NCBI GenBank assembly: GCA_023213395.1
Contig: CM041465.1
Span: 245,713,741-245,777,740, forward strand
DNA length: 64,000 nt
Direction of reading: 5' to 3'
Source of the DNA: Cycas panzhihuaensis
Taxonomy: Eukaryota; Plantae; Cycadophyta
Shown piece by piece: positions 10,533-64,000 of the stretch. The position numbers and the translations under genes were made by a program. The stretch's first letter is position 1; each line of letters starts with the position of its first letter. A model generated the notes under the pieces. It was not told the origin of the DNA and ran no database searches. It saw only the letters and a list, made by a program, of their open reading frames with translations.

Positions 10533-10639
10533 CTACCTGCAATGACCCTTAACAAGTGCATATCTCACAAGTGTAGTGAAATAGAACTACCTGCAATGAC
10601 CCTTAACAAGTGCATATCTCACAAGTGTAGTGAAATAGA
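10533..10639. repeat. Perfect tandem duplication, 54-bp period x2
   Basis: CTACCTGCAATGACCCTTAACAAGTGCATATCTCACAAGTGTAGTGAAATAGA at 10533 and 10587. Confidence 0.95.
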
Positions 10640-10694
10640 GCTCAATAGGAATTTTCTTACGATCTGTGGGCTTCCTTGGTGCATGGGATTTGCA

Positions 10695-25616: not shown

Positions 25617-27525
25617 AAACCTTGTTACCTCTCTAATATACAAAAATAGAGCAAGATAACCAAAATTGGATTGAGGTGGATGGAATGATTGGTGGATGTG
25701 AAGAGCACCACAAAAGAACCAGAAGGACATCAGAGTGAACCCTAAGAGAATTATATTCATCAACATATCATTACAATGAGTAGGGTGCCATATTTATAAG
25801 AGGATCCCATATTTCCACTATTATTAAATACTCATAACTTTAACCTACTTAACCCTTAACCTCCTAATATATTATCCCTCTAACATGTGGTGAAGGATCA
25901 CCACATGCCCTCTCCCCTAAGATGCTTTGCCCTCAAAGCATCCTAATATAAAAAATACACGTCCACCACTTGTTGCTAGAATGTCATAGGTAGATTTATC
26001 ATCCTTGTGTCATAATGAAGAAACTGATGTTAGGATATCTTCATCGTGTAACACATTATTTTCTCCCAACTCGATGGATTTTTGGTTGACCACTCCATCA
26101 TGTGGCAAAGATGAAGATGAAGGGGCTTGAAACTGTCTTGTTAAAATGTCAAGGAGAGTCCTTTGTATGTTTTCAAGCATGTTTTGAACTGCTATTCTTC
26201 TTTCTTTTGCTTCACGCTTAGTTTGTTCTTCTGCAACACGTTGTGGATAAAGTTCTTGAATCTCTAGGCAAAAGAGCAAACATGAAGAGATTCCAAGTTA
26301 CATGGATACCATGTATTTATGCATCACGGAACTGCCATTGTGCCCACCCATGGAGTTTTTCATTGCAAAAGGTTAATATCTTCAATATTTTTTTCATCCT
26401 CTTGTAGGTTGACCTATTTAAAGCATGTTTGCAAGGCAGTAAGCCAATCGTAGAAAGTCACTAAATCATTCTCAATATTGAAGTGTAGGGGTGTGGTCAT
26501 GATATTTTTTTTTTTTTTTTTTAATACCAAGAGAATACTCATGGCCTCAAGAGCAATGGCATGTAAACTAAGGTTTAAATAACCTCAAATAATACAAAAA
26601 GAAACACTAGTATAAACCCTTACAAAATGGAAGCATTAATTTAATTTTAAATATCTGATAAACAATGGCTAAAAATGCACAAAATGTGGTTCAAAATAAT
26701 GGTCTCTAAATTACAGATGACTTTTTTAAGAAGGGTTTACTCCTAGAGATTTTGGACTACAATAATTCCCTCTAATAAAATGCAAATAACTTTTCGCTCA
26801 TACCTTTGATTGACCTAAGACCATTCCATTCGAAAGTAGACAAAAAATTGCATAGAATAAAAAAATAATTGAGGCTATTTGAATACTTGTAACTAAAGTT
26901 ACGGTCATTTGATGTTGAGGTATTAGATTTGCCTTCAAAGTTGGTGACTAAAAGCAGGCTGAAATTAAATCTATTGTATTTTTTTTTTTGCCCTGAAATT
27001 TAGAGTGTGACCACTCAAAATTTGTAGAATGAATTATTTCGCCTCAAATTCACCATTACTTTTTAAAAAATTTTAACATTTATACTTAGATATATGCCTT
27101 TGAACCTTACATTTAAGTAGTGGAAAAAACAAATTTCTAAATACCATTACTTTGATACCACTTGTAACAAGGTTAACCTTGTTATCTTTCTAATATACAC
27201 AAATAGAGAAACATAACCAAAAGTAACTAGAGGTGGATGGAGTGAATGATGCATGTGAAGAGCACCAAAAGGGAACCAGAAGGACACCAAAGTGAACCCC
27301 AAGAGAATTATATTTATCAACATATCATTAAAATGAGTAGGGTGCCATATATATAGAAAGATCACCCTATTATTATATTGTTCTACCACTAAGTTAACCA
27401 TTTATACATTTCCACTATTATTAAATACTCATAACCTTAACCTACTTAACCCTTAACCTCCTAATATATTAACCCTCAACCTCCTAATATATTGACCCTC
27501 TAACATGTGGTGAAGGCTCGCCACA
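25617..27525 (-). mobile_element. Small non-autonomous LTR element A (LARD/TR-GAG-like), ~1.9 kb
   Basis: LTRs ~25617-25906 and 27163-27525; PBS TGGTATCAAAG (reverse complement of ~27150-27160); PPT AGGGGAGAGGGC (reverse complement of ~25908-25919); degenerate gag-like ORF 26010-26500. Confidence 0.85.
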
Positions 27526-27643
27526 TGTGGCGAGCCTTCACCACATGTTAGAGGGTCAATATATTAGGAGGTTGAGGGTTAATATATTAGGAGGTTAAGG
27601 GTTAAGTAGGTTAAGGTTATGAGTATTTAATAATAGTGGAAAT
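27408..27643. repeat. Perfect 236-bp palindrome (118-bp arms, no spacer)
   Basis: Centre CTCGCCACA|TGTGGCGAG at 27525/27526; the arms match base for base out to ATTTCC/GGAAAT. Confidence 0.95.
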
Positions 27644-36334: not shown

Positions 36335-39300
36335 TGTAGTGAGCCAAAAACAATATAGTAGAAAGAAGCTCTATTTCCAACAATGAAATTATATTCAAAG
36401 CAGATCATAGAACTTCACAACAGTAGATCTCATACTTTTACAACAGTAATAAAATTTCATAAATAACATTCAATAAAGATAATAATAGTGTAAATAAATG
36501 ATATGTGGTGATATCAACAGAACAACAGCACTTGATACAAACTATCCAACAGCTTGACGAATCCTCTTCGAGGTGATAGTGACTTTCTAAATAGGCACAA
36601 GACCCTAATGGCATGGGGCCATTATCCCTTCATAGCAGAAATTCTCCAAGATGATTTTCAAATGAAGGTTGTTTTTTTATTTATAGCCAATTTTATAATT
36701 TTTCCTCAAAAAAATTGACTTCATAATACAATAATTTAAATGATTGTTCTTTTAATTCTTTTAAAATCGATTTCACCACAATAAATTCTTTATATAAAAA
36801 TGAATTCTTTTAAGCTACAATACCCTTCCCGTTAAAATAATGCTTTGCTTTGAAGTATTTAGAATTTACTTGTAACTCGATTTGATCTTTTAACCACCAG
36901 CTGGTAGATCTTGTATGTCATAAAAATCTGATTTGGTCTTCTGTTTTTCATGGAATATTGCTAGCAACCGTCTTGAATTTTTTGAAGTTTATTTCTAGGA
37001 CTAGATACATGCTGTGTCTTGTTCAGAATCAGAAGGATCTTAGGACCAGTGAGGTTATCTCAAATGTCTTGTATTGGTCTTGTCTTGCATTTGCACATTT
37101 TGTTGTTCGATGAGATAGATTTTGGGAGAAGACAAAAGCTTTGGGAAAATAATTGGTCGTAAGGGTCATGGATTGATGATTGATTGTTGCGAAAAAGAAA
37201 AGAAAAAATAGAATTGTGAACTGAGATAAAGCATAGTTTTGAAGGTATAGGAAGAAGGGATAAATTTTGTAATTTACCTTGGATGGAGATGCGAATTTGT
37301 ATAGATTCTGTTAGGTTATAACATCTTTTGGGAAAGGGAAATGGATGGGGAATTAGTGATAGACATTTTTTATGAAAAAAAGACTTTAATGAATTTTTAG
37401 GGATGGTTTTCAGATAAGAGACAAGTTTTAATAGAAAAAAATAGTATTGATAATATGAAATTGAAGGGGTTTGGCAAACGTAAGATTGAATTTTGTAGGG
37501 GGTATTATTAAGTGATAGAATTTGACGAGCGGTTTGGAGTTGAGGAATATCCTATTGAGGATGATCTATATGGGATGGAGGAGTAGGTAAGTAAAGAGAT
37601 GAACTAGGATTATAGAGAGAAATTAGGATTTGACCTATGAAAAAACTAAAATTAAGGGAATTAAGATCATGGCTAACTATGGCTTGAGGATAAGATGGCT
37701 TTTAGACTATCATTGAACTAGGGAAAGAAAGAGGACGTATAAAACAACCAAACAAAATGTGTATGTGCATTACAGGATCAATGAGTATCTTGTATGAAAT
37801 TTGTTGAGATTCTCCTTCAAGGTTTATTTGTTCTTCATTGTCTTCATTCTACCCTTACGAAATTTCACTTTGTATTTTTTCTTCGATATTGTCTTGAGAC
37901 TCTTCTGTTACCTATGCCTGCTTCAAGTCTTCTATGTAGTCAAGTTGTTCCCTTTGTGGCTCTTGTTTTAACTATTGCAAAATTTTTGCTTCTTTTCTTT
38001 CTTCTCCTACTTTTGCCCCTTCATCTGGTTTCTTTGATGCTTTGGTACCCTCACCTTGCTCGTGGGTCTGAAGATCTTTTTGTTGTTGTCCAAATGTTTT
38101 GATAAATGCGCATTGAAACCAGAACCAATATGTGTATCTTGTTGATTGGTTGGACCAATTATTGAACCAATTAGAAGTTTTTTCTCCTAAGAATAATTTT
38201 AAATCTGCCTAATAATCATTAATTTTTTTACTTCCTATGAATTAATTCTGATCTTCAACCTAGTCTATCCATCCTCTTGCATCAATGCCTTCTTTGGGTT
38301 CAAAAAGGTCAAACATCTTTTTCAGTATGAAAATATTGCTCTCAACTGTGTCTTTGTCAATAATAGTTGTTTTCAAAGATAAAAATCGCTATTCTCTGTT
38401 AATCAAAACTATTACATATGACCACTCGTTATGTACGTCTCTGAACCATAAATCTAATGATTCAGATGACATTACAATCTGGCATCTGTAGCAAGAGATA
38501 TGAACAAAATCAATTAAATACCCAGTTTGGAAAATAAAATTGAAAAAAAAAAAAATTCTTTTATTAACCCCTTTTTGTCGGTTTAACCCTTGGTCATATT
38601 GTATCACCATATGTCCATTTGTTATCGGAGAAAAGGCGAACTTCAACATATATCAAATTTCATAAAATTAACAACAAATTAAAGGAAAATTTAGGAAAAT
38701 ATATTAGCACCTAGACTTTATATCTGCGCCTCATTTCTATATGCTTGATTATCGCATGTAATGTTGATTATTGTCTATAATGCCTTTGATATCTTTCCTT
38801 CCGCTGCATTCTACGTGTGTATAACGCAATGCTCTTGTGAAATGGTCTGTTGGCTCTTGCACCTAAGCGATTTCTCAGTGGCTTCAACTTCGTGACCTAG
38901 CTATGTTCCTATGGAAACAAGTTTTGGTATAACACCCTCATACCCTGCTTTGCTCCACTTTACCTTGCATGCCTGTTGGTTTTTTCTTTCGTCTGTTCAA
39001 TTAGGGAATCAAACCAAGGATGGCTCGTGGTAGGTTTCTTTTACGTCTATAGGGATTTGATCGAGTGGCATTATGAACAGGTATTCATCCTTTTCAGAAC
39101 ATTCAAGGAACCCTAAATAAATACCAACTAAGAAGCTACGAGAACCCAAAGACCCAGGATATTATGTCCTAGCTTTCCATATTCTAGTTGAATTCAACAT
39201 AATGTACATAATTTTCATGTGCACCGATCTTATATGATTCCCTCTCGCACACCTGCTGCTTCATCGTCTTCTACACTCTACCCAGTTTTGCTCTGTTTGT

Positions 39301-40180
39301 AGGTCGTTTGAGGATGGACAGATCGTTATAGACATAGGGACGTCTTCTACACAATCTTCTAATCTGTAAAATATCTATGGCCATTCATGATATTTTAGAT
39401 TAGGTTCTTAATAGTGTAATTGATCGCAGAAGCAGAACGATGGCCCCAGATTTGCTTGTAGCTACATGACAAAGTCCCCATCGAACAACCACTCTGACGT
39501 TTAGGGTTTTTGGTCCAGCGTCCAACACTTCGTTTTTTTATAATTTCTGGAAGATTGATAAATAGTTCTCTGAGATTAATTGGTGGCAGGGCAACAATGA
39601 ATGAGGTTTTGATTTTCTATTTTCTTTGGCACAATTTCAACTCAACCCTTTGATAACAAGGCTCTGATACCAGTTGTAGTGAGCCAAAAACAATACAACA
39701 GGCAAAAATTCTATTTCGAACAATGAAATTATATTCAAAGCAGATCATAGCACTTCATAGCAGTAGATCTCATACCTTTACAACAGTTATGATATAATTG
39801 TAGTAATAAAACCTCATAAATAATATTCAACAAAGATAATAATAACGTAAATAAATAATATATGATGATATCAATAGAACAATAGCACTTGATACAAAAT
39901 ATTCAATAGCTTGGCGAACCCTATTCAATGCGAGAGCGCCCTTCCAAATAGGCACAAGGCCCTAATCGCACGAGGCCATTATTCCTTCACAGTAAAAATT
40001 CTCCAAGATGATTTTCAAATGAAGGTGGCTTCTTTATTTATAGCCAACTTTATAATTTTCCCTCTAAAAGGCCGACTTCATAATAAAATAATTTAAATAA
40101 TTCCTCTTTTAATTCTTGCAAAATCAACTTCACCATAATAAATTCTTTATATAAAAGCAGCTTCTTTTAAAAATACTACA
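36335..40180 (-). mobile_element. Complete non-autonomous LTR element (gag-remnant only, TR-GAG/LARD-like), 3.85 kb, TSD ATATG
   Basis: LTRs 36335-36819 and 39675-40180 (TGTAG..CTACA); PBS TGGTATCAGAGC (reverse complement of 39661-39672); PPT GGGAAGGGTA; ATATG at 36330-36334 and 40181-40185; gag-like FEPKEGIDARGWID..NWF..FIKTFG at ~38090-38320; no pol motifs. Confidence 0.92.
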
Positions 40181-44756: not shown

Positions 44757-47700
44757 TATTATATAACCTCCCATGGCGAATAACATATAACAACTAATTG
44801 TGCAGTTAAGGTGGTACATGCTAATGTTTATTAATGGGTATGTATGGGCTGCATATCTTTACCAATGGGATTAAAGATCGTATAGTCCTCTAATAGGATG
44901 CTAAGGAATAACAACTACTTTTGTTTATTTAAGGTCATACATTTGTAAAGAAATCCCTTATGTCATAATCTCCTCTTGTAAGATTGTACTCATGTATAAT
45001 TTATCTTTTGGTGTCTTTTAATCTCTCTTATATCTTTTCATATTCTGAATGTAATCTAAACTGTTGCAGCAATAAAAGATCTATTTGTGCTCTCTTATTA
45101 CTTATTTAGAATAAAGATTACAAGTTGGGATCATAACAAGTGATATCAGAGCGAGATACAACTATTTAGTGGAAAGATTTAGTAATCGCAGGGATTTTTT
45201 TTTTTTTTTTTCCCCCTTTGGTTATTTTCAAAACCCTCTATCATAAATAGTTTTTATCTTTTTTTGATTAGTTATGTTATTCACGTAAGTCAGTTGTAAT
45301 TAGGCAACTCACTCCAAATTAGTAAATCACACCCTCCCTTCCCCTAAAGTTTAGGTACATATCCTATGTTAGGAGTCTATAAACATCATAGGGATTTGTC
45401 ATTTTTGGCTAAAAGCACATTTAGATATATGTTGTTGCGTGAAGTAAAATGTAGACTGCACTAATACTTAGGCCTTCGATAGAACCTGATTATAGACTTA
45501 TGCTTCCACATACCCTTGAGTATATAGGAGGACCCCTGTAGGCTTTTTCACAAATCTAGAATAGGAAAACATTTGACCATTTGTCCCTCTGTGGTGTACA
45601 GGTTAATGATTAGCATTTGGAAGCTACTCTACACGACTGTAGAGCTTATGGGGACAATTTTTCCTTTGTAAGTAGTACCTTGAGATATTGGATTGAGCTA
45701 TAGTAACGACAAAGTAGTTTATTGTAGGGCCTATAGACCTAAACACTCCCTTGTCAGAGTTTGGTAGATTCTCTTATCACTTGTACGTTAATTATTAAAC
45801 AAACCCTCCATACAAAATCTTGAGTCTACTGTACTTCTATCAATACAATTGAGAATTACCATAAATCTATGACTATAACTTATTATTGAATAAATCAATA
45901 ACAATACTCTATATAAATACCATCACATCCAGTAAGGTGATCCTACAAAAAATAGTAAGATTATCAAATCAGAGCATATCTGCAAATTTACATAGTTTAG
46001 CTCTTAAGACTTTTTAGTACAATCAATAGGTAGACACACTGTGTTGGAATTTTTGCCCAAATTTTCAACATCATTTACATCTAGTTCTGTCTGCATCAGA
46101 GTTGCCTAAACTTAGTCCAACCTAGTTGAGTTTAGTCCCATAGTTTATCTTACAAAAAAAGAAAGAAAAAGAAAAAAAGAGTTATAATTTTGTTAATATT
46201 TATCGGATTTAAACGAGACTTACGTCGTTAGACTCGTAAGAAAAAAAAATATCCACGACCCAAAAATTGACCTTAGCAACTTATTCATCTTATTTTGATT
46301 AGTGTCTCATGTTGATTCAAGTCCACAAAGTCTTTTTCAACTGTCAATTTTGGCAAAAACTTAACTTACGTGCACTTTGTAAGCCCTACTGGTCTCAATT
46401 TCTCATTTATTATTCACCTATATCATCTTGACGAGCTTGTTGCACTCGTTCAAGTGCACTAGGTTATTTTCTTACTTAATTTTTGGGGTCAACAACGTAT
46501 AGACAACTCATACCCTACCCTTCTTTCCTCTCTTTATTCTTTTTATATATCTCCATTCCTTTGACACCCATTCTACTTATCTCTCCCATTTCTTGCATTC
46601 CTTTCTTCTAGTTATTCTTCGCTTTGTCAAGACCCCTTTTGTAATGAGTCAATTTGAACATTTTTTCTCTTTGGAAACTCAATTCCTCACTATATAGAAT
46701 ATACACAAACATGACACAACTAGGCTATCATTAGACATTGCAAACTTCACTAAACATATTACATCTATACACAATCAACTCTCCAGTTTTTTCTTTGTGG
46801 CCAACTCTAACTTCAACATTTCACAAGGTGTAGCATCTTAAAGTGGAACCCCACCTCCCTAGTCTATATGATAACAACCATTCAATTATAAAATTAATAT
46901 ATTAGTCTTCGATTCAAATCTCAACAAGGATGTAGTTTGTGATTGGTTCAAAAAATTTAGATTCCTATTTTGCACTCAATCACTTGTTTAAAGTTGATCA
47001 ACTGACATTTGCCTCCATTCACTTGGAAGGTAAAGCTCACTACTGGTATAAATAGTAGATCCGTAAGTATCCATCAAATCAAACATGTGATCAATTTTGT
47101 AAATGCTTTTTTGAGCAATATGAAGAGACATGGAACTAATATGTTTTTAGCCAATTGATGTGATTAAGACAAACCATGTTGGTTGAAGCCTACACGAATG
47201 AGTTCTAGGCAATTTAGACTCAAGTCACCTACTGCCTAGAAAAATAGACATTGGTTGAAACTTACATAGCTAATCTCAATGAACGAATCCAAATGAGTCT
47301 GAAGACCGACTAATCTGCTAACCTTCAGGATGTCGTCAATTATGCTAAGGCAATTGAAGTTGAATTTACAACAAAGCGAGCATTTCGGGTTAGAAGAGAC
47401 ACCTTACTTTATTTGCCAAAGGCTTGTAGAACCATATAGACCTCCAAGGCTTTGAGCAAAAGAACCTCCACGACAATCAATAGACCGTCCAACTGAACCC
47501 TCGATAATAGAACAACCATCAACACAAATGTAGATACCCACATCTGAGGTGCACAAGTGCAAAGAAGCTGGTCTATGCTCATAGTGTGCAGAAAAATAGT
47601 TCCCATGACATGGTTATGTATGTAAAGGCAAAATAGTCATATTCACCATTGACCCCGATTCTAACTCCGAAGATGAAATTGAAGAAAACCACCCTTGGAA

Positions 47701-50700
47701 CCCTCCCCTCCTCTTGACCTTAAACCCAAAGCACTCCTATTTGTTATGTCTTCTTCTACTTGCATTGACCCGTTACAAGTAAGAGGGACCTTAAGGAAAA
47801 TGCCCATTACAATTTTGATCAATAGTGTTGCATTATTAAACTTTATTGATATTGTAATAGCTAAACAATGAAACCTCTACATCAAGTCAAAAATAAGGTT
47901 TAATTGTTCTCTCCTAGGCCATTACTCCCTCCACTATGTGGGTGTTATTCGAAATCTCCAAGTCCAAATTGGTATATATCATCTCAAGTTAGACTTTTAT
48001 GCTTTATCCATTAGGGGATTAAATGCCATGTTAGGTGTCTAATGGCTCCAAACATTAGGCACTTATAGTACCAATAACTCCCTAGAGAGCCCATTTATAA
48101 TGTTTAAAGACCACAATGGCCAAACTCATAAACTTTATGGCCTCCAATCACCACTTAACAAATTTATTTGCCCTAAGCAAATGAGTAAGTGGCTCAATGA
48201 GAGTATCAAATATATTGTTCGTCTTAACAGCAATCAATCATAGTTTGAAGTTAACCCATATATGCAATCCATTCTCACTAAATACCAATCTGTCTTTTTC
48301 CCCATATTTGGTGGCCCTGCCCCAAATCACGGATTTCATTACACCATCAACCTAAAAAATCCTTATAACCTTATCAATCTATGTCCATATTGAAACTTCT
48401 ACTTCCAAAAGAATGAGATCAAATGTATCATTAATGAATTTATAGATATAGGAATAATACAACCTAGTAAAAGCCCTTATGCAACTTTCATTGTGCTAAT
48501 TTGGAACAAAGCTGGTTCTTATCGATTTTTTTTTATTATAGGGAACTCAACAAACTGACCATTAAGAATAAGTTTCCCATCTGCTGGATTGATGATATGT
48601 TAGATGAACTCCATGAGGCTACAATATTTTGCAAATTAGACTTGCAATCTAGATATTACCAAATACCAATAGGCCTTGAATATAGGCACAAAACAACTTT
48701 TCAAATCCATCATGGCCACTTGGAATTTCAAGTCATTCCATTTGGGCTATGTAATGCTCTGGCCACTTTCCAAGCCCTCATGAATAAAATTTTTGCTCCT
48801 TACCTTTGAAAGTTCATTATTGTTTTCTTTGATGATATATTAATTCATACTGCGAGCATGCCCCTACATCTCCAACATTTAGAAACTACCATTTAGGTAC
48901 TAGCTCAAAACTAGTGATATGTAAAGATGTCAAAATGTGAATTTAGAAAAATTGAATTACAATACTTAGGTCATATCATTTTCAAAGTTGGAGTACAAGT
49001 TGACTCTAATAAAGTGTCGATCATCACCCAGTGGCCCACCCTAAAGAATTTCACAAATTACGAGCCTTCCTCGAACTAATTAGCTTTTATCGTTGCTTCA
49101 TTAAAAACTATGCATCCATAATCGCTTCCTTAACGAATTTACTCTATAAAAACTCCTTTCAATGGTCACAAAGTGCTGAGAATATCTTCAACTTGCTAAA
49201 AATGTTCATGTCAACGACACTAGTCCTCTCCACTTGTGACTTTTCCTAGTCATTCTAATTAGAATGTAATGCATCATGTGTGGGGCTAGTGGTTGTCCTC
49301 ATGTCAAAATTTCACCCCATCGTATTTGAAAATTAGAAGCTCAAAGAGCATAAGTGTTGACTACCCACCTATCAAAAAGAAATAAAGGCCATTCTACATG
49401 CAATAGACAAGTGGTGCCAATATCTGTTTGGTTCCAAGTTTACCATTTTGACAAGCCATCATAGTCTTCGCCACTTATTAGACCAAGCAGTTTGACCTAA
49501 AGAACAAGCCAAATGAATTGATAGATTACAAGTCTTTGATTTTACCATCTCATATAAAATGGATAAGGACAATGTTGTCATGGATGTTGTCCTCCCAACC
49601 TTTAGTTGAACCTACCATTTAGGCCATCTCGACGCTCTAACCTTTGTGGCTCCAAGACTTGGTCGAGGCCAACAAAGCCTAACCTAACTTTGCCACCTAG
49701 GCTAATAAGGTCCAAAATCATAAAGATTGGAGTTTACATAATAACCACTTTCTCTATCAAAATTACATTTTCGTATACCCTGGTTCCCTATTTATTACCC
49801 ACATCTTGTCTATGTATCAAAACAACCCCCTTGGACGCCACTTGGGATTTAACAAAACCTATAATTGAATTTGGTTAGATCTATACTATCCTTGTATGAA
49901 GTCTGTCATCGTCACATATATATCTGAATATGATACATACTAACATAATAAGGTGGACACCAAGACCCAACTTGACCTACTTCAACCCTTGTAAATCCCT
50001 TAGGGTAAATGGCAAGACATTACTATGGACTTCATCATAGAACCCCCATTATTAGTCCTGTAAGATTTTATTTGGGTCATCATAGATCGCCTGACTAAAT
50101 ATGCCCATTTTTTACTTGTCTACACTATCTACAAAGCCCCCCATTTAGCTAAACTCTACATCAAATTCGTCTTTCATCTCCATAGCTTTCCATCAATTAT
50201 TATATTCGATGGAGATTTCTAAATTCACTAGCACATTCTCTTTTGTGCATAAGGAATGTCCTTCAACATGAGTTCCTCCTACCACCCCCAAACAAATGGG
50301 CAATCCAAAATTCATATTAAAACCTTATAAATGTGCCTTTGTTGTTTCGCCTTAGAACACCAAATACATTGGACCTCTTGGCTAGTCTTAGACAAATATT
50401 GGCACAATTCTTCCCATTAGTCTATAATTGGTATGACCTCTTTCATGGCCCTCTATGGTTACCCCCACCATCTCAGCATAGCTTAACCACCAATTTCCAT
50501 ACTGCTAGGGTGCAATAAACACTAAAGGACATGGATCAAATCTTCCACACCCTTAAGAAAAACCTAGCCTCTACACAACATCAAATGAAGCAACTAATGG
50601 ATTGCCACCACTTTGATCAATCATTTGAAATGGGTGACCTAGTTTTCCTTTGCCTCCAACCTTACAATCAGCATTCCATTTGTCATAACAAATCCCACAA

Positions 50701-51457
50701 ACTAAGCCCTCAATATCATGGCCTATATAAAATCACTCAATAAATTGGTGTAGCCATTTATGCTTTTAACCTTTCTCACAATACTAAGATCCATAACGTC
50801 TTTCATGTATTCTACTTAAAAGAACACCTAGGAAAGTCTGTCATCCCCAAAACAACCCTTTCTACCCTCTAAGAAGAAGAGATCTTCACAATTTCTCCCA
50901 CATGTATTTTAAACACTCGCCAACGTTGTCTCCATAATAGAACCATTTTCAAGCATCTAGTGTAGTGCGCTGGCTGTGAACCTGAGGAAGCCATATGGAA
51001 ATCATAAGACTCTATTAAGCATCATTTACACCTTTAGCATTTCGGGGACTTAGTGTTTCATAAGGGAGACCTATTACATAACCTCCTAAGGTGAACAACA
51101 TATAAGCAACTAATTGTGTAGTTAAGGTATTATAAGTTAATGCCATTTATTAATTGGCGTGTACAGATTATATACCTTTACTAATGGGATTGAAGGTTGT
51201 ATGGTCATCCAATAGGATGTTAGAGAATAATGACCACTTATATCTATTTAAGGCCATACATTTATAAAAGAATCCCTTATATCATAATCTATTCTTATAA
51301 GATCGTATTTATGTACAACTTCTCTTTTGGTGTCCTTTAAGCTATCTTATGTCCTTTCATATTCTAAATATAATCTAAGCTATTACAGTAATAAAAGATC
51401 TATTTGTGATCTCTTATCGTCTATTTAGAGTAAGGATTGCTAGTTGGGATTATAACA
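44757..51457 (+). mobile_element. Full-length degenerate chromovirus (Ty3/gypsy with chromodomain), TSD TTATG/TTGTG
   Basis: LTRs 44757-45138 and 51072-51457; PBS TGATATCAGAGC 45141-45152; gag ~46640-47620; [35 protein letters not shown]; RNaseH; integrase; chromodomain-like ILNTR..HLV..GCEPEEAIW at ~50900-51030. Confidence 0.93.
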
Positions 51458-54400
51458 TTGTGCTTATTTTGTCAAAGAAAAAAAGCAAAGGTCCATAAGT
51501 TCATGGGAGTAGGTGGTTATATCTTTTGTGGAAAATTTTCAAGTTAGAAATACATGCAAGAACGTTAATTAAGCTTTGCTATAAGCTGAGGCATTACTGT
51601 GTTGGAGTCAAGGACAAAGTGGATAGACTACAAAGCCATTTCGAATGAGTTAACCATAGTTCTGATATGAAGGTGGTGTTGAAAAACACCAGGGAGGCAT
51701 TCCCCATTATTATATAGTTTTGGGGAGGCGATAAGCACCTTTACCTGATATTAAATAAAAAATTTAAATAAATAATAAAATATTAAATGCATTATTAAAA
51801 TAACGTACTTTAGGTGGTATTGGACGCTTATGTTATCTCAAGATGGCTGCATGGCAGCTTTAGGTGGCCTGAGGTGCCTTTTAGTGGCCCAAGATGTCTT
51901 TTAGGGGCCCAAGGTGGGTGCGCATGTTTAAATATTAGACGTTATCTCAACATTCTCCCCTATAATGGTTAATGTGTAGAACTCCCTGCTTGTCTTTGAA
52001 CTTATGGAATTTGATCTTTCCCAAAGATTTTGTGAAGATGTCAGCTATTTGATCTTCTGTACTGTAATATGTCAATTCTATTTCACCTGTTTGTACTAGC
52101 TCTTGAAAGAAATAGTGTTGTGTCTCAATATGCTTTGTTCTTCCATGAAACACTAGATTCTTTGTTATTTGCATTATACTTTGATTATCACACCAGATTC
52201 TTGTTGGCCCTTTCTGTTCTGACTAAAAATCCTATGATAATCTCCTTAACCAAACTGTTTCACATGCCCCTAAAACTGTTGCTTTGTACTCGACTTTTAG
52301 TGTAGATAAATATACTGTATTATGCTTTTTGGTGATCCAAGTTATAACTGTCGAACCCATACTAAAAATATAACTAGAAGTCAATTTCCTGTCATCAATA
52401 TCACACCTTGATCGAATACTGTGTTTAACCAATATGAAATTTAGAGAATATTTGTAGAACAATCTATATTTTGATGTGCCTTTTAGATATTACAAAATTC
52501 TCTTAACTGCTTGTCAATGAGATGTCTTGGGTTCTTGTATAAATCTTGATACTGTACTAACTGTATGCACAATGTCTAGTTGAGTGGAAGTTAGGTAGAT
52601 AAGGCTTCCAATCAATTGTTTGTAGAGAGTAGGGCCTATTGGTATGGAGTCATCGAGTTTAGATAATTTAAGTCCAGATTTAGAAGTAGTATCTAAAGGT
52701 TTGCAATCCACCATTCTGAACTTCTAAAGTAAGTCTAAGGTATATTTTCTTTGGGAGATAAATATGTCATTTTCTCCTTGCCATACTTCTAGACCTAAGA
52801 AGTAATACATTATTTCAAGGTCTGTCATTTCGAATTCTTTGTACATATTTTTCTTAAAAGTTTATAGAAGATGTGTATTATTACCAGTGTAGACAAGATC
52901 ATCTACATAAAGTCCCACGATTAAAATAGATTCTCCTTTGATTTTGATATATAGGTTTGGATCCAATTGAGATCTTTTAAACCCTTAATTTCTAAAATAT
53001 TTATCAAGATGGGAATACCATGCCCCGAGGGCTTATTTCAAGCCATAAAGTATTTTCTTAAGCTTTTATATATATTTTTCTTTACCCCTGACTTTAAAAC
53101 TGAGGGGTTGAGAGATATAAATGTCTTCTTTAATATGGTCATTAAGAAAGGTGCTTTTGACATCTATTTGATAAATGTCCCAACCCATTTATGCAACAAT
53201 ACTCAACATTAAATGAACAATTTTCATATGAGCAATGAGAGCAAAGGTCTCACTGTAATCAGTTCCTTCTCATTGGGCATAACCTTTAACGACAAGTCTT
53301 GCCTTGTGTTTGTTAATAGAACCATCTAATCTAAATTTAGTTTTATATACCCATTTTGTACTGATGACTTTTTTGTTGGGTGGAAGATCAACTAATTCTC
53401 AAGTATCATTTTTGATGATGGAATTGTATTCTTCTTCCATTGCCTTTTTCTAATTATCATGTGTATTAACTTCTTCAAATGTTTGAGGCTTATGGGATTC
53501 CATAACTTTACTCATGAGGGCAGAGTTTACCATATGTGTATGAGTAGATCTCTGATTGTAATTGTTATCCAAGATGTTCCTATGTCGTTATTCCTTTGAA
53601 TCCATTTTGGAAGGCATTGTGATAGTGGTTAAGAAGAGGTTCCCTCTCCACTTGGTTCATCAATGACTCGTCTAGAGTCAAACATGGGTGGCACATATCT
53701 TAACTTAGTGGAGGTGTTAAGATTTATCATCACTTCTTTCTTTCTTTCTTGGTCATTATAATAACAAGCGTCTTATTAGAATTTTACGTCTCTGCTTACC
53801 ATAACCTTTCTTGTCTTAGGATCATAGACCTTATATGATTTGGAGGTTTCACTATAACCAATAAATATGCATTTAATGCTATGGTCATGCAGCTTGGATC
53901 TTCTATGATCAGGTACATGTGCATAGCCTAAACAACCAAAAACTCTTAAGTGATGGATATTTGGCTTGTAACCTGTCCAAGCTTCTTCAGGTGTCTTCCA
54001 CCATAGGGTATTAGTAGAGCATCTATTGAGTAGATATACAGAGGTATAGACTACTTCCGCCCAAATTCATATCCCAAATTTGTATCTTTCAACATGCACC
54101 TTGCCAGTTCTACAATAGTGCGATTTTTCCTCTCAGCTACACCATTTTGTTGTGGGGTGTAGGGATTTGTAAGTTGCCTTCTTATCCTATGATGCATGCA
54201 ATATGCCTTAAATTCATTGGAAATGAATTCTCTCCTATTATTTGATCTTAGTAAGAGAAGTTTATATTCACTTTGCCGTTCCACATAGGTTTTGAAGTTA
54301 ACAAAGTGTTGGAAGGCATTCGATTTAAACTTTAGGAAGAATACCTAAGTCTTTCTTGTATAGTCATTAATAAATGTAATTAAGTAATATGCACCTTCCA

Positions 54401-56292
54401 ATGAGGGTACATACATAGGACCACAAATATTTGTATAAACTCATTGAAGTGGTCCAGATACTCGATAACTGTAATCTGGAAAACTCTCTGTGCTGTTTGC
54501 CAAGTAAGCATCATTCGTAAATATTTTTATTCACTTTTATGTTAGGCAACCCATTAACCATGTCCATCTTTTTCATTAAAGCCAAATTACTATAGTTTAG
54601 ATGTCTAAATCTCTTGTTCCATAAGTCACTATCCAGTTTAACCATGGTTCTTAAGGCATAAGTATCTAATGGGCTAAGGACAAGTTTGAAGAGTCTATCA
54701 ATTATCATTTTCTCTTTGGCTACAACCATCTTGTTTCTTCTCTTATATTTAATTGTACATTCTCCATTATCAAATATGATCTTATAGTCTTGGACCATCA
54801 TCTGTCCTACTGATAGTAGATTTTTCTTCAAAGTAGGGACATATAATACATCATCAATATATCTATATTCCTCTGTATCTATTATGAGAGTGGTATTTCC
54901 TCTACCAACTAACTTATGGAAGGTGTCATCACCAAATATTATTGATCCCCTTTTGGTTCTATCCAAAGTATGGAATTAATGCTCCTTATATGTCATATGA
55001 GTAGAGCAACCTGAATCAATATACCAGCTGTCATCTTCCTCTTTATGGGTAATATATCTAGATAAAGAAAGTCTATTATTATCCATTATTTCAATTGTTG
55101 TATTGGCACTACCTTTTATAGGTGGTCCATATTTTGAAAAATACTTATGTTCTGTATGACCATTACGTTTGTAATAAGTATAATATAATGTGTCTCTTCT
55201 CCTATAACTTAAACTTCGATTATGAGGATGAGGTCTATCTAAGTTAGATGGTCCCCCCTTTTCCTCATAATGTGGAACTTGATTGTCCATTGGTCTATTG
55301 TCATAATAATTGAGATTTGATCTTTGAGCTTGTATGCTTCCATGGCAATTTGGGTAACATGGATGTGCCTATGGTTATTTCTCTTGATTTTGACATCTAA
55401 GAGGATTGGTATTCCTTTGGTTTATTCCTTGTCTCCTTCGGTGAGGAGCTTGATACTTAGATGGTACATCTTAATGCATGTCCCTTCTAGGATTTCTTTC
55501 TCTTCTTCTGGGAGATGGTTCTCTAGACTTGGACGTACTAGCTCGAGAATTGGACTAGATTCTTGCCTTGGTAGCAAAGGCATGTTTAAGAGATTCATTT
55601 GTGTTTTGTTTCTCTTCAACTATCATAAACAAAGTACTTAATTGTTCCACCTTAAGGGTACTTAAGTCATTGTATACCCCTATACTTGTTTCTACCATTT
55701 CAAATCTTCTTACGAGACTTACACATCTCAAGATTCATTCTACTACTCTCTGTTCAGTTAGTATATCTTCAAGCGATCTCATTTGATTTACTAAGTCTTG
55801 CACTCTAGTCATAAATTCTATCACAGATTCAGTTGGTATCATGTGTAAGCTCTCAAATTTGTTTCTTAAAGTTTGAAGTTTGGAAGATGCAACTCCTTCA
55901 TTATAAATTAATTGCAAGGTATCCCAAGCCTCTTTTGATTTTGTGGACTCACTAACTCTTAGAAAAATATAGCCTTCCAATGTACAGAAAATGAGAGAAA
56001 GAGCTTCTTTATCTTTCTTAACTTTTTCAACATCTGCGGCCTTTTAACCTAGTTCATTATAACATGTCCTTACAATTTCCCACATGTTGTTAGCTATGAG
56101 GATGGGTCTCATCATCCCAGTTTAATTTAGAAAGTTTGATGCATCGAACTTAGGAATAATCATGTTTCTAAAACTTGTTGCCATTTCTTATCTAGATTTT
56201 ATAAAAAAAAATCTATAAATAGAATGATATTTCCCAAAAGTTTGGTTTTAATATTAACCCAAAAATAAGGTTTAAAGTTTTTCTCAAAGTTT

Positions 56293-56730
56293 ACAAGTGT
56301 CATAATCCCTAATGAGGTTTTTAGGCTTTGAGTCCAAGTTTCTCCAAGGGAAACCTTCGGTTGCTATCATATCTAATGGCGCCTGCTCATAAGTGGTAAA
56401 ATAGGGACCCAATATATCGGTACGTGAGGTTTAGAATCAATATACCTCAGTAAGTGGGCTACTAAGAAGGTTGTTATACCCCCTTAAATTGTTGGTCCAC
56501 CTGTGCCGAATTTATACCTAATGATAGATCTAGCGGTGAAGATTTTACAAACTGTGGCACTCACCCTCTCTAGGTCTAGCGTTGGTCTTTGAACTCTATA
56601 AGAAAAGGTTCTTCACTTCATCTTGCTACCTAATACATATAATATCCAATGATATACCCCATCTAATATGAGTAGGCTAAGAGCATGTGCATGGTGGTAA
56701 CTTCAAGTGTCCTAATCGTTCCCCTCACAA
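56293..56730 (-). promoter_or_regulatory. Candidate structured RNA element upstream of gag (copy 1)
   Basis: Colinear with 62571-62992; shares hairpins; ends ~110 nt before the gag ATG. Confidence 0.55.
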
Positions 56731-57585
56731 TGTTTAGAAAAAAATGTGGTAAATTTAGGATATTATCTTTATTAATGTGAATAATTTAAATTAGATGTGG
56801 TCTTTCTTAAGCATACAAAGATTCCTTTTAAATAAGAAATGAAATGAAAGAAACTTTAAGTAAGACTAAATAATTTAAATGAAAGAAATAAGTAATACTT
56901 TATATCAATTCACTATAAAAATAAATTAAATGATCAATATATTCATTTTTTAATAAACCAGAAAATGGATGCCAATATGCAAGCTAATACTTTTCAAATT
57001 AAAATGCTCTTTGTAAATAAAGTATACAAGAAATTATATGCCCCTTCTCTAAGTGATGCAATGAATCAATAGAACCTTCAACATTTGAATGCTCTTAAAT
57101 CTTAGAATGTTAAGTGAACGTAGAAGCATAAAATAAGCAAAAGAACTTGTAATTATGCCTTTGCAATGCACTTGTCAAGTTTAAAAAAATATACTTTGAG
57201 ATAAGTAAGAAAGCTTCTTTCACTAATGAACTTTAAGATGTATAACAAATATTATAAATATTCTTTGTACTAACGTAAATCTAATGACAAGAAACTCCTT
57301 TCTAAATTTAGAAGTAAAATAGGTATACCTCAAAATTTTCAAGAAGATATAATACTTAAAATGATCAAATATGATAAAAAATTATTCTAAATTCAGATGA
57401 AAGTGTAAAATAAAGTAAATGATCAAGGTAAGAAGTATTGATTTGATGTATTGATCCAAGTAGGCCTCTTGATCCTCAAGAAGCTAAAACTGATGCTAAA
57501 AAGTTATAAATCAACTTGTAATCTTATAAAAACCAATAAATATCATTAAAAAACTAATTAGTGGCAAACAGTTATCAAATATATT

Positions 57586-58326
57586 TAATTAAGATAAAAA
57601 ATTAGCTAAAAAATATTACAAATGTGTCTAATTAGGGTTAAAATAGAGCCTTGACTTGTGGAGTTTTAAACATATGCAAAATAGTGTCAAAATAAGATGA
57701 AACTAGTTCTAATGGGTAGAGCTCTTAAAAACCTTTCCAATGGTTCTGACGATTGAAAAATAGAGGTATAATAGTCAAGTTACTGAAGAAACAACAAACA
57801 AACCCGCTTATGATAAGTGAAATAAGTGTAGAAAATAAAGTCAATTTTGAACAACTCAAACACTATATAAACAGACTCAAAATGAATTAAATATGATACC
57901 AGGATGGAGAGTTCTAAAATACGAATCCAACGAGTCTAATTTTATGAAAAATTGACACTCTAGTATGAAGTTATAATAGAAAAGGCGAATAATCTTCTTT
58001 GTGGAAAAAATCAAAATGAAAAAAATATGATAAGGGCCTTTAGCCCCTTATTGAATAAGGTAAGGATCACGTGGGACCTAATAAGATCAACAGCTAAGAG
58101 CCCAATGGGGCTGACAGATCTCAAAATTTATCAAATACTCAATATAAATTATGAATAATAAAAAAGTTTCAAAAAATATTTATTTTTATTTTAAGTTCAC
58201 CCCAAAAGGTGAAGGACATGGTCATATGGCGTGATAATGTGACCGGGAGTCACATATCGAAGGGGGTTAAATGAAATCTAAATGCACGGACTTAAAACAT
58301 TATTAAATTCGATTTAATTTCAATTG

Positions 58327-58363
<37 letters not shown>

Positions 58364-59108
58364 TATAATTAAGATAAAAAATTAGCTTAAAAATATTACA
58401 AATGTGTCTAATTAGGGTTAAAATGGAGCCTTGACTTGTGAAGTTTTGAACACCTGCAAAACAATGTCAAAATAAGATGAAACTAGTTCTAATGGTAGAG
58501 TTCTGAAAAACCTTTCTAATGGTTCTTACGATTTGAAAAACAGAGTTATAATAGTCAAGTTCTTGAAGAAACAACAAACAGACTTGTTTATGGTAAGTGA
58601 AATATGTGTAAAAAATAAGGTCAAATTTGACCAACTCAAACACTACATAAACAAACTCAAAATGAGTTAAAGATGACACTAGGCTGAAGAGATTTAAAAT
58701 ACGAGTCCAACAAGTCCAATTTTATAAAAAACTGATACTCTAGTGTGAAGCTATAATAGTAAAGATAAATAATCATCTCTGTAAAAAAAATTCAAAATGA
58801 AAAAATATGATTAGGGCCTTTAGCCCCTTACTGAATAAGGTCAAGATCACGTGAGACTTGATAAGATCAATAGCTAAGAGTCCAAGGGGACTAACGGATC
58901 TCAAAATTTATCAAATATTTAATATAAATTATGAATAATATTTAAAAAAAAAATAGATTTATTTTTATTTTAAGTTCGCCCCCAAAGGTAAAGGACATGG
59001 TCATATGGCATGATAACGTGACGAAAGGCCACAGATTGAAGGGGGTTAAATGAAATCCAAATGTGCAGACTTAAAATTTTATTAAATTCAATTTAATTTC
59101 AATCGAAC
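57586..59108. repeat. ~780-bp tandem duplication in the copia leader, with (TA)n at the junction
   Basis: TAATTAAGATAAAAAATTAGCT.. at 57586 and 58366; colinear to ..ATTAAATTC; (TA)n at 58330-58359. Confidence 0.9.
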
Positions 59109-60692
59109 TTTAAAGAAAAAAAAATGTAAAAGTCGAATGGCAACTGGCGACGGAGAGCGATGAAAAATTTGACGTGAAATAGATCGTGAATCGAACAAAG
59201 AGTCAATTGATTCTTTCATATACCAGCGACACCTCAACGAGAAATTTACAGGCGATGCAGATTCACGAGCATTGTTGTAGTAGAGTGGGGTGGAGGATAA
59301 CGACAAACAATTGAGAAAATACAAAAAATTGATGATATATTCAACTCTAACCAGAGGAGAACTGCATTAACAAGCTGACCTTGAAGTGCAAATTCACAGC
59401 GGCAACTAGAAATTTTGTTTGCTAAGAAAGATACAAATTCCCGCTTAACAGGAAGCATTTGCAGAGCTTTGCCAAACTGACGTTAAGAGCAGAGAAGACG
59501 AAGTAGAATGCCTCTTTAGAAATAGATCTTATATGAATTCTTTTAAACTGAAGCAGTAGAACATTTGGTCTAAAGGGCTTTGCATTCCCTGTAGAACCCA
59601 TGTAGACCAGCTCTTCGGGATCCCAACTAACAATGAGCTAAGATATCTATGCGACGAGGCTGTTATTCCTTTTTATATGGGCAGGGGGCAAAGGCACTGA
59701 GTCTCAGAATAGAGACACAATATATAGACAAGTTGGAGTCGCACAAAAGACACAGAGGGTCGTATGGTTCATAGAGGGACACAGGTTCAAATAGAATAAT
59801 AGTATTTATTTATTTTTCAAAAAATGTATTAAAAAATAAAGAGAAAAAAATAAAAAAAGATTATTGACCTTTTACAGATCCGAGAGAGTACTTGGCAGTC
59901 TGAAGAGGATACCTCCACTCATAGTGCACGAAATGTTGAACAGATTCTTCCATTGCGAAGATAACTCAATTGTGATCAAAACAAGTAGTAGCTTGAAGGG
60001 GTTTGACCACTGGTTTGGAAGGTAGATTACACTAAAGTTTAAACTACTTGTTGATCCAAATAATTGAGCTGAGAACCATTGAAAAAATGACAAACAATCC
60101 TTAAAAGGTTAGTCTATTTCCTTCCAAATCACAATAGCCTACACACAACTAAGTTTGTTGCAAAATATTGGGAGTTAAATGTTCAAATGGATCACAAAGA
60201 GTGTATGTACATCAAATGGAGGCCATTCACGTGAATATGTATTAAAATTCTAATGATAAATTTTATAGTAAACTTTAATATAACGAAAAATAATGAAAAG
60301 AATGCAATACTTAAGTATCATGGGTTGAATTGTGTGCTCTGATATCAAGGACAAAGTGGATAGAATATAAAGCCATTTTGAATGAGTTAACTATAGTTCT
60401 GATACAAAGGCAGTATTAAAAAATACCAATAAGGCATTCCCTATTATTATATAGTTTTGGGCAAGCGACAAGCTCCTCTACCCAACATTAAATTTAAAAT
60501 TTAAGCAAACAATAAAACATTAAATGCATTATTAAAGTAATATATCTTAAGTGGTGTTGGTGGCTATATGTTAGCTCAAGGTGGTTGCATGGTGGCTTTA
60601 GGTGGCTCGAGGTGCCTTTTAGGGGCCTAAGGTGGGTGCACATATTTAAATGTTGGACATTATTCTAACATACTGTTCTTAGAGGTTGATTT

Positions 60693-63600
60693 TGTTAAAA
60701 CTTTGTAATAACACCTTCATTTCTTTGTAATATATGTTAATTTTGTATATAATGTGTACCTTAGGCGACCCACATTATAAATTTAATCATATTTTGTATT
60801 TATGTCAGGTTTGCTGAATGTGTCGCTTAGTCGGCCAATTGTATTCATTAAAATCTTGATGGGATGCTTATAAATTAAGTCCCAAACTATTCATTTGTAT
60901 ATGATTTTGAAGTATATGTGGAAGCTCTACCATTTTTGAGCCTCATGTGATGACCAATTTGTCTGTGAATCATTATCTCTATTCAGCTCTTGTATTTTAC
61001 TTGTCTGTTACATTATTTTGATAGTATAACTTGATATTAGATTAGTAACACATGATTTCTAGATCTTGGAAGGTTTTTATCATGGTATCAGAGCAACTTT
61101 ATGCTCAGATTTGAAGATTTTTGAGAAAATAGTGGAAAATAAAGGCTCGTTCCCTTATAAGGACACCCTATTTTTAGTCATTTCTCCATTTTTCTCTTAG
61201 TTATTGGTGTAAGCTGTTGTGTTGATGTAAAGTTCAAGCATTCTTCAACATATTTCAATTCCATACAACTAATAATCAGTTCATTTGCAGTTGTACTTAC
61301 TTAGAGGTCTATTTTTTATCAAATAATGGAGGAAACAACTCATTTTCAAGCCACTTCAACCCTAGATTGAGACAAATCTGCTTGTTGGAGCTATATCTTC
61401 CTCCGTGGTTGTTATTTAGCTTTAGTCTATAAGAGTCTATTTAAAGGAGTTTCATGTTGTTTTAAGTTTGTTTTCTATAAGCTTTACCTTACAGAAACCC
61501 CACACATTATGTAGCTTATATCTGCTCGTCTAGGGCTTGTTTTGTATCAAATATCCTTCCTTGTCATGTCACTGACTCTTGCCTTCCCTCTCATGCACTC
61601 GTAGATTAAAAAATTTGAGATTTAAAGGCTCATTGGGCTCTTGTTCCTCCCATAGGTCGCCCATGGCTGTACGTAGTTTATGCAGACTCTACAAATTTAT
61701 TTTCTTTAAAAACTTTTATGTTTTCCATTAAGATTAACTTTAGATCATTGAAATCAAATCATATTTGATAATTCTTAGGATTACGACCCTTTAGCCCCCT
61801 TGATTTGGTCCTTTTGATCTCTCATATGATTATAATCATTACAAAAGTGGTAGATTCCAAATAACTATATGTTATTTTAGATTATTTTTGCAATTTCAAA
61901 AACTTCAAATCATATTTCATAAAATTTTAGGTCCATTAGCCCCTAGCTACATCAACGAGTGGTTTTGTGCAGTCTGTAGGTGACCGTGGGCCAATTTTGA
62001 AGGGGTTTAAGCCTATCCCTCTTAAGGTTTTCTCCCAACAGAGCACCTATAACCGTCTTGGCCATAACTCTGCAATCAGCTATCTGATTTCCAATCCGTC
62101 TAGACCGTCGAAAAGTGGATTCAAAGGACTATAACTTGGAATCAAATTGAGCCAAATTTGAAACCGTTTTGCTAAAGTTATAAACTACTTAAGTAGAGCT
62201 TGGTGTTAGAGCATCTTTAAGCCTTTTTCTCATTTCTTAAAAGCTAAATTTAGATTTTCAGAAGTTCTTTTGCTGCTTTATGCCATTTTTAATTTTTAGT
62301 CATTTGTCTTATTTTATTTTTTTAGGGTAACAAAGTGCATGGTGTTGGTTTTTTGTGGGTGTCACTCTTGGAAGATAAAAGTGGATCTCTCTTATGCAAG
62401 CGCACTTAAGATCACTCTAAACCCTTTCTTTTTCATTAATTTCTTTTATTTCTATTTTATATTTTAGTTATTTTGTTAAAAAAGAACCTTTGTATGTAAT
62501 AAGTTACTTTATAAGATCAATATTATCACATTAAAAAAGATGACTTTCGAATTAACCTCCTTATACTAGCCTTGCAAGGGTAACAATTAAGACCTTTGAA
62601 GTTACCACGTCACATATGCTATTGGTGTACTCTAATTTGTTGAGGAAACCATTGACTATAAGGTGTCAAGTTGAGGTGGAAACCTTTCTATTAGAGTTTG
62701 GAGACTAGGCTAGACCCGAAAGGGGTGAGTGCCTTAGTTAGTCAAGTTCTCACTACTAGATCTGTCACTAGGCACAAGTCTGGTGCAGGTGGGGAAATAA
62801 GTAGACCTTCATTGCAACCCATGTATTGAGGTATATAGATCCTTGAACTCATTTACCGGTATATAGGACCCTTGGTTTGCCACTTGTGGGCAAATACCAC
62901 TAAATAGAATAGTAACTCAGAACTTTCTTGGAGACCCTTAAGACTTAAAATTCTAGATTAGCAGCCCCTTAGGTAGATTAGTACTTGAGCACATGAATTT
63001 TAAAGATACAAAATAAAAAGAAAAAAAAAAAACTCTTAGAAAAATGGCATCACAAATGTTATTATCCAACATAATTAAACTTAATGGTATAAAAAATTTC
63101 ATACCATGGAAAAAAGAAGTTAAAAATCTACTTATCATAAATGACTTTTAGGCCTAAATAGAGACATACCCCTTCCTAGACCAACACAAAATCCCAACGA
63201 TCTTGACACCTTAATTCCTCTTGATGCTATAACCTTATCCAAATTTAGAGCTAAGGATAATATTACTTTGTTCTTCCTCTACTTGGTAGTTGAAGACCAA
63301 GTGTATTAAAACATATAAACAATCGAAACATCTCATGAGGCATAAACCATTTTTTATGCCCTCTATGAAAGAAATGATGAATTTAAGTCCTTGACCCTTA
63401 AAGCTCATCTATATGTCATCCCTTTTGTAGGCACTATCACAACCCATTTAACTGCAGTAAAGACCATTATGATCCAATTGATAATCCTAGGTGAACCACC
63501 TTTAGATCATGACCTCATATCTAACATCCTAAAACTTTTACTCACAGAATATAATAGTTTTATCTTTAAACTTCATGACAATTATTCAAAAATAGACTTT

Positions 63601-64000
63601 ATCACATTTAAGCTCTCTTGCTATGGGAAGAGAACATTCTCAATAAACTTAGGGTTACATTTACTTCTGACTTAATGCTTGTCTTTACAACCCATAATTC
63701 ACAAAAAGGTAAGACTGTACAAAAGATAACTCAATAGTCAAGTCAACTATAAAACCTTGCTCAATAATTAGATTCTCTCAATATATCTCAAGAGTCATAT
63801 CAACAACTAACTCAGCAATAACAACAACCAGTAAGTACCTTTTCCAATCCAAGTCAGCAACTGCAGTAGCCCAAATAACAGCCATAGTTTCAACGACAAA
63901 AGAACCACTGGAGTAGATCAAATATCACCTACCTTTACTATGGAAAAACTAGACACCTCATTGTTGAATGTAGAAGATGTCAAGTTGATTTGTAAATCTT
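60693..64000 (+). mobile_element. Ty1/copia 5' part: LTR (~60693-61082), PBS, ~2-kb leader, degenerate gag; runs off the window
   Basis: PBS TGGTATCAGAGC 61083-61094; gag from ATG 63044 (KLNGIKNFIPWKKEVK..LLTEYNSF); decayed knuckle YLYYGKTRHLIVEC at ~63930-63970. Confidence 0.88.
62571..62992 (+). promoter_or_regulatory. Candidate structured RNA element upstream of gag (copy 2)
   Basis: Colinear with the reverse complement of 56293-56730; several hairpins; ends ~50 nt before the gag ATG. Confidence 0.55.

Follow-up and report, generated by a model that had tools for sequence, protein, structure and literature searches.

Cis-acting signals in the leaders of LTR retroelements are a known kind of element, and their roles can overlap, as they do in the leaders of retroviruses and of CaMV; the leader of the CaMV 35S RNA serves in ribosome shunting. 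Some Drosophila errantiviruses are described as carrying internal ribosome entry site (IRES) sequences (PMC3383448). BARE, the studied plant copia element, appears not to rely on cap-independent translation of its uncapped RNAs (PMC3735527), which counts against an IRES in an element of this type. According to the main text of a 2025 review, which makes no mention of IRESs, the export of plant LTR retrotransposon RNA has not been directly studied and it is uncertain whether these elements have export motifs at all (PMC12786077). Copia elements are characterized as mostly alike in structure, with a suggestion of ancient recombination between lineages (PMC6317226). In the main texts of the largely non-subscription literature that we searched, we found neither the leader block reported here nor any IRES of a plant copia element described; families with long leaders may be covered in supplementary data, for instance the element tables of REXdb.

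The window, i.e. the whole 64-kb stretch of DNA analyzed here, consists of nested, decayed LTR retrotransposons with a G+C content of 27-43%, among them two copia elements, A and B, whose features are collected in Table 1. The Met-type primer sites and a CG/CHG pattern in the decay point to a land plant as the host. Element B is bounded by LTRs of about 350 bp that are 83% identical over aligned sites and by a 5-bp target-site duplication, retains the copia order of gag, protease-region, integrase and SH3 pieces, and adjoins element A about 400 nt 5' of the latter's primer site (PBS). It was probably inserted within the 5' LTR of A, whose other end lies beyond the window. The PBS of A is presumably of the tRNA-Met type. 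Both elements preserve the broken start of a Retrotran_gag_2 gene, and these gag pieces are 12-14% identical, yield no BLASTP alignment and group with different relatives: the gag of A groups with the proteins P0067 and P0068 (50% and 35%), and a search with that of B led to P0062-P0066 (37-48%), which are 17-22% identical to the gag of A. Judging by gag motifs, A may be Ale-like and B Ivana-like. A search of the ESM Atlas with P0067 confirmed PF14223 and gave nothing further, and a protein search with the protease region of B returned no match. The compared LTR parts of A and B share only matches of 22-36 nt (best E 0.02). The first-pass annotation had called the LTRs, leaders and gag sequences of the two elements dissimilar; this holds for the gag genes and the LTRs and fails for the leaders, which are homologous 5' of the shared block as far as 62424/56885 and again in a segment farther upstream (region 1).

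Other parts of the window hold a copia integrase piece with a 332-codon open RT frame (2-1975; 42-43% G+C), belonging to a younger element whose leader lies beyond the window; a decayed gypsy-type element without the block (44757-51457), which has RVT_1, an LTR pair 81% identical and a PBS-like site at 45141; and a short or deleted element, also without the block, marked by two LTRs that lie only 3.8 kb apart and agree at 85% of their aligned sites (36335-40170; PBS at 39672 on the minus strand). There are also a tandem duplication (10695-11367; ~335 bp, 91%), a degenerate short tandem array (20079-20387) and a perfect 236-bp palindrome (27408-27643) within an inverted duplication (26042-27477 versus 29185-27686, 73%), adjoined by a PBS-like site at 27954. 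Since the surrounding DNA is old and decayed, so perfect a palindrome suggests that it either folded back recently or is an artefact of the assembly.

Table 1. Positions of the conserved leader block and of associated features of elements A and B in the window
Feature	Position	Strand	Evidence and remarks
Conserved leader block, copy A	62571..62950	+	blastn E 4e-43 to copy B; segment identities
Conserved leader block, copy B	56327..56730	-	blastn; segment identities; core 56496-56597; donor-like GT at 56564
Block core, copy A	62690..62793	+	3 transversions/101 sites versus copy B; alignment; depth peak in relatives
AT-rich shared flank 5' of block	62424..62570	+	weakly conserved (38 transversions/147 sites)
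GGTGAGT, 5' splice-donor-like	62724..62730	+	two window occurrences, one per block; inside 13-nt run without common variant
Palindrome AGATCT, candidate dimerisation site	62758..62763	+	both copies; relatives' variants
Predicted hairpin with invariant internal loop	62703..62739	+	MFE of copy A; relatives' variants; candidate co-varying pair 62706-62736
Second homologous leader segment, region 1	61696..62258	+	~58-60% identical to B's tandem unit, best E 1.6e-8
Tandem duplication in B's leader (~780 bp, 86%)	57582..59112	-	each unit homologous to A's region 1
PBS of element A	61083..61094	+	
Broken gag start, element A	63044..63672	+	ATG 63044; PF14223 E 5e-4 for 63346-63672
Broken gag start, element B	55558..56184	-	ATG 56184; PF14223 E 1e-16
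Whole element B, decayed copia	51600..60670	-	LTRs ~60350-60670 and 51600-51957; PBS-like site 60347; TSD CAGTA both sides

Directly 5' of gag in both elements lies a shared block of about 380 nt, the two copies of which align at 66.7% identity over 406 columns. The colinearity of 62571-62992 with the reverse complement of 56293-56730 claimed in the first-pass annotation is confirmed for 62571-62950, and all 15 of the shared motifs that it listed are in their places; the start of the block stands and its end does not, as clear homology stops near 62950 and the last 40-90 nt beyond it reach 56% aligned identity versus 50% in shuffled sequences. No third copy was detected in the window by blastn or with a two-copy nhmmer profile (next best E 0.69). 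The distance from the PBS to the start of the block is 1.5 kb in A and 3.6 kb in B, and its end lies about 90-140 nt 5' of the gag AUG in both elements, its position being tied to the AUG rather than to the PBS, and the spacer that follows it is AT-rich (14% and 19% G+C) and poorly conserved. The copies contain 2 (A) and 8 (B) ATGs, some of which may come from CpG decay, and the spacer of A holds one. There is no open frame in the block, with 7-14 stops per frame in all 12 frames, and its mismatches lack codon-position bias (38/34/33 by position), and a decayed extra ORF or coding remnant was accordingly rejected. Scans against Rfam 15 gave chance-level matches only (best E 0.82) and none to an IRES family. 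ARAGORN found nothing in it. No covariance-model or ARAGORN match speaks for a ribozyme, group I/II intron, SRP, snoRNA or tRNA, and three Rfam scans did not bear out suspected likenesses to group I intron R/S words, to hammerhead, HDV and twister ribozymes, to SRP/Alu, or to the IRESs of HCV and dicistroviruses. When considered as a solo LTR or MITE, the block had no blastn match to any LTR in the window and no terminal inverted repeat common to both copies was found; a 14-nt direct repeat (93%) is present at both ends of the block of copy B (56294-56307 and 56704-56717).

From PBS to AUG the leaders measure about 1.95 kb (A) and 4.15 kb (B), with 17 and 29 ATGs 5' of the block, in agreement with an earlier estimate of 2-4 kb with many upstream AUGs. 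The associated claim that scanning ribosomes could hardly cross them is weakened: both leaders are U-rich with acceptor-like sites 5' of the block (62325 in A and 56913 in B), so the upstream AUGs could be removed by splicing without recourse to an IRES. An ATG at 62540, which opens a short ORF before the block of A, is private to this copy, having no equivalent in B and being absent from about 99% of relatives; a CaMV-type shunt leader was therefore dropped, there being no conserved short ORF before the block. Region 1 and the tandem unit of B fold better than shuffled sequences, and better than the block, with z-scores of -2.9 and -3.0 that are confined to the sense strand, and by these predicted folds region 1 may be a second, structure-conserved leader element.

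As a measure of conservation we counted transversions, which methylation decay does not produce, and used three LTR pairs as a gauge of decay after insertion. The core of the block, 62690-62793, has 3 transversions in 101 sites, and the LTR pairs have 36 in 1181 (P = 1.0); most differences between A and B in the block are consistent with methylation decay, at about 10% per copy. The counts rise to 16/118 and 19/156 in the flanks of the block (P = 0.004 versus the core), 24/89 in the tail before the AUG and 122/457 in region 1 (P = 5e-9 versus the core), these P values being somewhat optimistic as the limits of the core were picked with knowledge of the alignment and of the depth peak given below. 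Divergence thus climbs stepwise on both sides of the core, from 3% to 12-14% and then 25-28%, and since shuffled controls give 29-30% transversions the leader flanks are near saturation. The block is hence better kept than the flanking leader of the same pair, and the transversion counts indicate that the active ancestors of A and B had almost the same core, whereas 150 nt from it their sequences could scarcely be aligned. Core divergence equal to post-insertion decay is also what would be left by a leader tract that was swapped or converted between families shortly before insertion, in which case the block would have no special function and its conservation would be only apparent. Modular reshuffling is described as common in plant LTR elements (PMC13570524), and the structure tests below were negative. 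We nonetheless regard such a recent exchange as improbable, in part because the rise in divergence is stepwise on both sides rather than located at one breakpoint, and in part on account of the relatives of the block.

Part of the stretch was matched in 12 of 24 public sequencing runs, from six organisms, and seven runs were compared (X1, X4, X5, X7, X12, X13 and X20, the RAD-seq run X13 contributing one read). The core was matched by hundreds to thousands of contigs in DNA runs from five organisms. In the three deep runs, X1, X4 and X5, a total of 7,092, 7,802 and 8,364 contigs, respectively, aligned to 61900-63400, and summed contig depth peaked at 62665-62766 (10,000-21,600); the upstream leader (61900-62511) had values of 36-2,300, and gag had values of 330-9,600. 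The core thus stands from about 5-fold to more than 100-fold above the upstream leader, although summed depth does not measure copies and the peak exceeds the best bin of gag by a factor of just 2-3 or so. Contigs diverge from the reference in numbers at 62666, 62691, 62739 and 62792, and past 62666 and 62792 their sequence is, by eye, like that of copy B, which suggests that A and B are part of one continuum. That depth peaks over the same short core in each of the three deep runs, and that many contigs leave the reference at its edges so that it is kept in many different contexts, argues against the exchange of a tract without function. Within 62655-62800 we aligned 2,637 contigs from organism B, 368 from organism D and 640 from organism F. 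At positions 62701-62739 a variant of at least 12% is present at 9 of 39 sites, and in the 49 nt of 62691-62739 no transversion reaches 12% in these three organisms; invariant runs include 62707-62715 and the 13 nt of 62723-62735. Apart from changes that read as C>T or G>A relative to copy A, the variants in this 49-nt stretch comprise two loop bases and the partners 62706/62736. Most of the invariant bases are not in CG/CHG contexts, and bases so placed are slow to change even in dead copies, which counts against a reading based on selection. In run X20, a contig of 4,679 nt has a relative of the core at its positions 1556-1592, with about 1.5 kb preceding it. This is a weak hint of read-through across the block, as the RNA nature of the run is a guess and the alignment covered 3 of its 139,402 contigs.

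A scan with the core pattern gave no matches in viral contigs or in prokaryote genomes, and the 20 of 20 matches that it gave in metagenome contigs were due to chance, their flanks being without likeness. Similarly, blastn against plasmids and phages found no match to the block, and protein-led locus searches found no copia relatives in viral contigs. In prokaryote assemblies such a search yielded three copia-like loci, two of them only 2.7 and 4.4 kb long, and none of the three has the block. The contigs with copia-like polyproteins filed under bacterial assemblies (L021, L022 and L023:8204-12064), one of which is 2.77 Mb long and has an open frame of 1,287 codons, are probably eukaryotic DNA in those bins.

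A conserved RNA fold of the block is only hinted at, by one candidate co-varying pair in relatives. Single copies fold no better than shuffled sequences (z -0.54 and +1.07), the two-copy consensus gives z -1.3 in sense and -1.5 in antisense (LTR-pair controls, +1.1 to -1.9), without strand bias, and the 60-nt windows below z -2 number 1/19 (A) and 0/21 (B) in the block and 3/76 (A) and 4/86 (B) outside it. Pairing had been held to be conserved where the sequence differs, and this is not above chance: shared helices of at least 6 bp number 5, versus 5.0 +/- 2.4 in column shuffles, and 9 versus 11.5 if A-C is allowed. A GCAC/GTGC "flip" that had been read as conserved pairing would be expected from CpG deamination of a common ancestor, and a proposed TTTGCC/GGCAAA hairpin has its motif in place and is not formed in copy B. 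Hairpins at 62696-62746 and 62752-62795 have z-scores of -2.8 and -2.4 in A and of +0.3 and +0.4 in B, and copy B in its present sequence does not form the middle of the stem of the predicted hairpin 62703-62739. In the candidate pair, 62706 is joined to 62736 by the predicted minimum free energy (MFE) fold of A, and the variants there, T>C at 62706 (25-30%) and A>G at 62736 (42-49%), are the sole stem variants other than C>T or G>A; these figures are separate frequencies from dead copies rather than linked changes, and copy B breaks the pair. When 32 listed variants are set against this fold, 11 are unpaired, 13 keep the pair or can be rescued by the partner's variant and 8 break it, i.e. 8 of the 21 common variants at paired positions are pair-breaking. 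With each copy decayed by about 10%, every folding test has reduced power. The overall proposal of the first-pass annotation, a conserved cis-acting RNA, therefore survives as a conserved non-coding cis-element, by virtue of the gradient, the depth peak and the invariant stretch, and its structural part fails the two-copy tests. A promoter and splicing, which that annotation had listed only as refuting outcomes, compete with its IRES and packaging readings, as does a role in export.

The 13-nt invariant run contains the donor-like GGTGAGT, which is found only twice in 64 kb. This donor consensus is present in both copies, invariant in three DNA runs and absent from one X20 contig; going by sequence, its invariance suggests U1 binding. 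The block might then be a nuclear RNA-processing signal, either a U1-bound donor hairpin that controls splicing or prevents early polyadenylation, or an element through which unspliced genomic RNA is exported. In Arabidopsis EVD, U1 is described as both splicing and blocking premature termination (PMC5580714), and the IAP and musD export elements and the structured CaMV leader are precedents for export (PMC12786077). A donor, however, needs 9 nt and not 380, the long X20 contig has no GT at this place, and no conserved acceptor precedes the gag AUG, the spacer of A being A-rich and the contigs of relatives replacing the stretch that holds A's AG. We thus consider a nuclear processing signal rather unlikely.

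Retroviral leaders have a donor-like hairpin just before gag, and the motif can accordingly also be counted for a packaging/dimerisation signal (psi/DIS-like), which would pair two genomic RNAs and bind the zinc knuckle of Gag. The block lies in the leader between the PBS and gag, as expected of such a signal, and both copies, like the relatives, retain the palindrome AGATCT (variants at 62759 amount to at most 4% in three DNA runs). If different families shared the signal they would co-package, and this would explain one leader beside unrelated gag genes. Ty1 is reported to dimerise via palindromes in its 5' UTR (PMC6844567), and BARE2 to have conserved dimerisation and packaging signals (PMC3735527). 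Nevertheless, the block is remote from the PBS, AGATCT falls outside any hairpin loop in the predicted MFE fold of copy A, and base-level identity beside Gags so little alike would be unexpected for a Gag-specific site, leaving a packaging role doubtful.

Folding without strand bias would also be in keeping with a DNA-level element (an internal promoter, enhancer or insulator), which could start a short gag-pol mRNA near the AUG and set the translated pool apart from the replicated one. Short motifs recur in pairs inside the blocks at spacings of 28-46 nt, in the manner of factor-binding sites (in copy A, GCTAGA 46 nt apart and GGTATATAG 28 nt apart), and copy A has TATA-like words about 185-215 nt before the AUG. 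BARE is described as having two promoters (PMC3735527) and gypsy a 340-bp insulator in its 5' UTR (PMC3383448). On the other hand, TATATA is absent from the block of copy B, the candidate co-varying pair points to base pairing, and the X20 contig suggests read-through, if weakly given its guessed RNA status. A DNA-level element is, in our estimate, unlikely.

Taken together, these observations make it very probable that the block is a functional, cis-acting leader module that has been conserved by purifying selection and is common to distant copia lineages. Its role can be proposed only tentatively, and our best guess, not far ahead of a packaging/dimerisation signal, an internal promoter or a splice/export signal, is that it is IRES-like. 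The block would act as RNA and be read by a host factor; a host partner rather than Gag is suggested by the same bases being kept beside unrelated Gags. As an IRES-like element it would bring ribosomes to the gag AUG beyond a long leader with its many upstream AUGs, and the AT-rich unconserved spacer may be their landing pad. The block indeed lies just 5' of the initiator AUG after a long AUG-bearing leader, and its AUG-tied place, the short AT-rich spacer and the unrelated Gags make an IRES the best fit, although an internal promoter fits them too. Against an IRES are the folds, which are not unusual and are bettered by that of region 1, the ATGs within the block and in the spacer of A, and the lack of an Rfam IRES match. 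The module might have been passed between lineages by template switching, or inherited with later divergence of gag. In its fullest form, which we put forward as a possibility on the speculative side, this proposal envisages a portable structured RNA module (an IRES or export element) that is read by the host, was spread by recombination between distant copia lineages and permits multi-kilobase leaders.

The block is a real, strongly conserved cis-element, common to distant copia lineages and apparently new to the literature. It shows that a non-coding module can be common to copia lineages that have lost all alignable similarity in Gag and LTRs, and it offers a concrete approach to the question of how Gag is made, or RNA exported or packaged, by elements whose leaders are long and rich in AUGs. 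A portable host-read module, if such it is, would be the first found in plant LTR retrotransposons within the literature searched, and an IRES working in plants would be a tool for multi-gene expression from one mRNA. Among the known systems, the IAP RTE, the musD MTE and the gypsy Su(Hw) insulator are described as non-coding, host-read elements of a few hundred bases, like the block (PMC12786077; PMC3383448); these are animal elements with animal factors, whereas the block is from a plant, sequence likeness having been assessed through Rfam. The CaMV 35S RNA leader (structured, ~480-610 nt, recruiting TREX) is a similar-sized leader of a plant retroelement; more than one role is possible for it, as for the block, and in both the sequence ahead of the AUG is AU-rich (PMC12786077). 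It differs in its strong hairpin, which is not evident in the block, and in its short ORF, the only counterpart of which is the ATG before the block of A that nearly all relatives lack. The 5'-UTR IRESs of Drosophila errantiviruses (e.g. Idefix) are, like the block, non-coding and located in an LTR-retrotransposon leader 5' of gag; they belong to gypsy-type insect elements and have been assayed, whereas the block belongs to plant copia elements, extends across lineages, is without an Rfam match and is known from sequence alone (PMC3383448). Finally, the 5' cis-region of Ty1 (PAL1/PAL2 and a pseudoknot) and the signals of BARE resemble the block in belonging to the copia superfamily, in lying in the leader and in having a conserved palindrome (PMC6844567; PMC3735527), but the Ty1 signals are described from a short 5' UTR near the primer site, whereas the block is found 1.5-3.6 kb 3' of the PBS, beside unrelated Gags.
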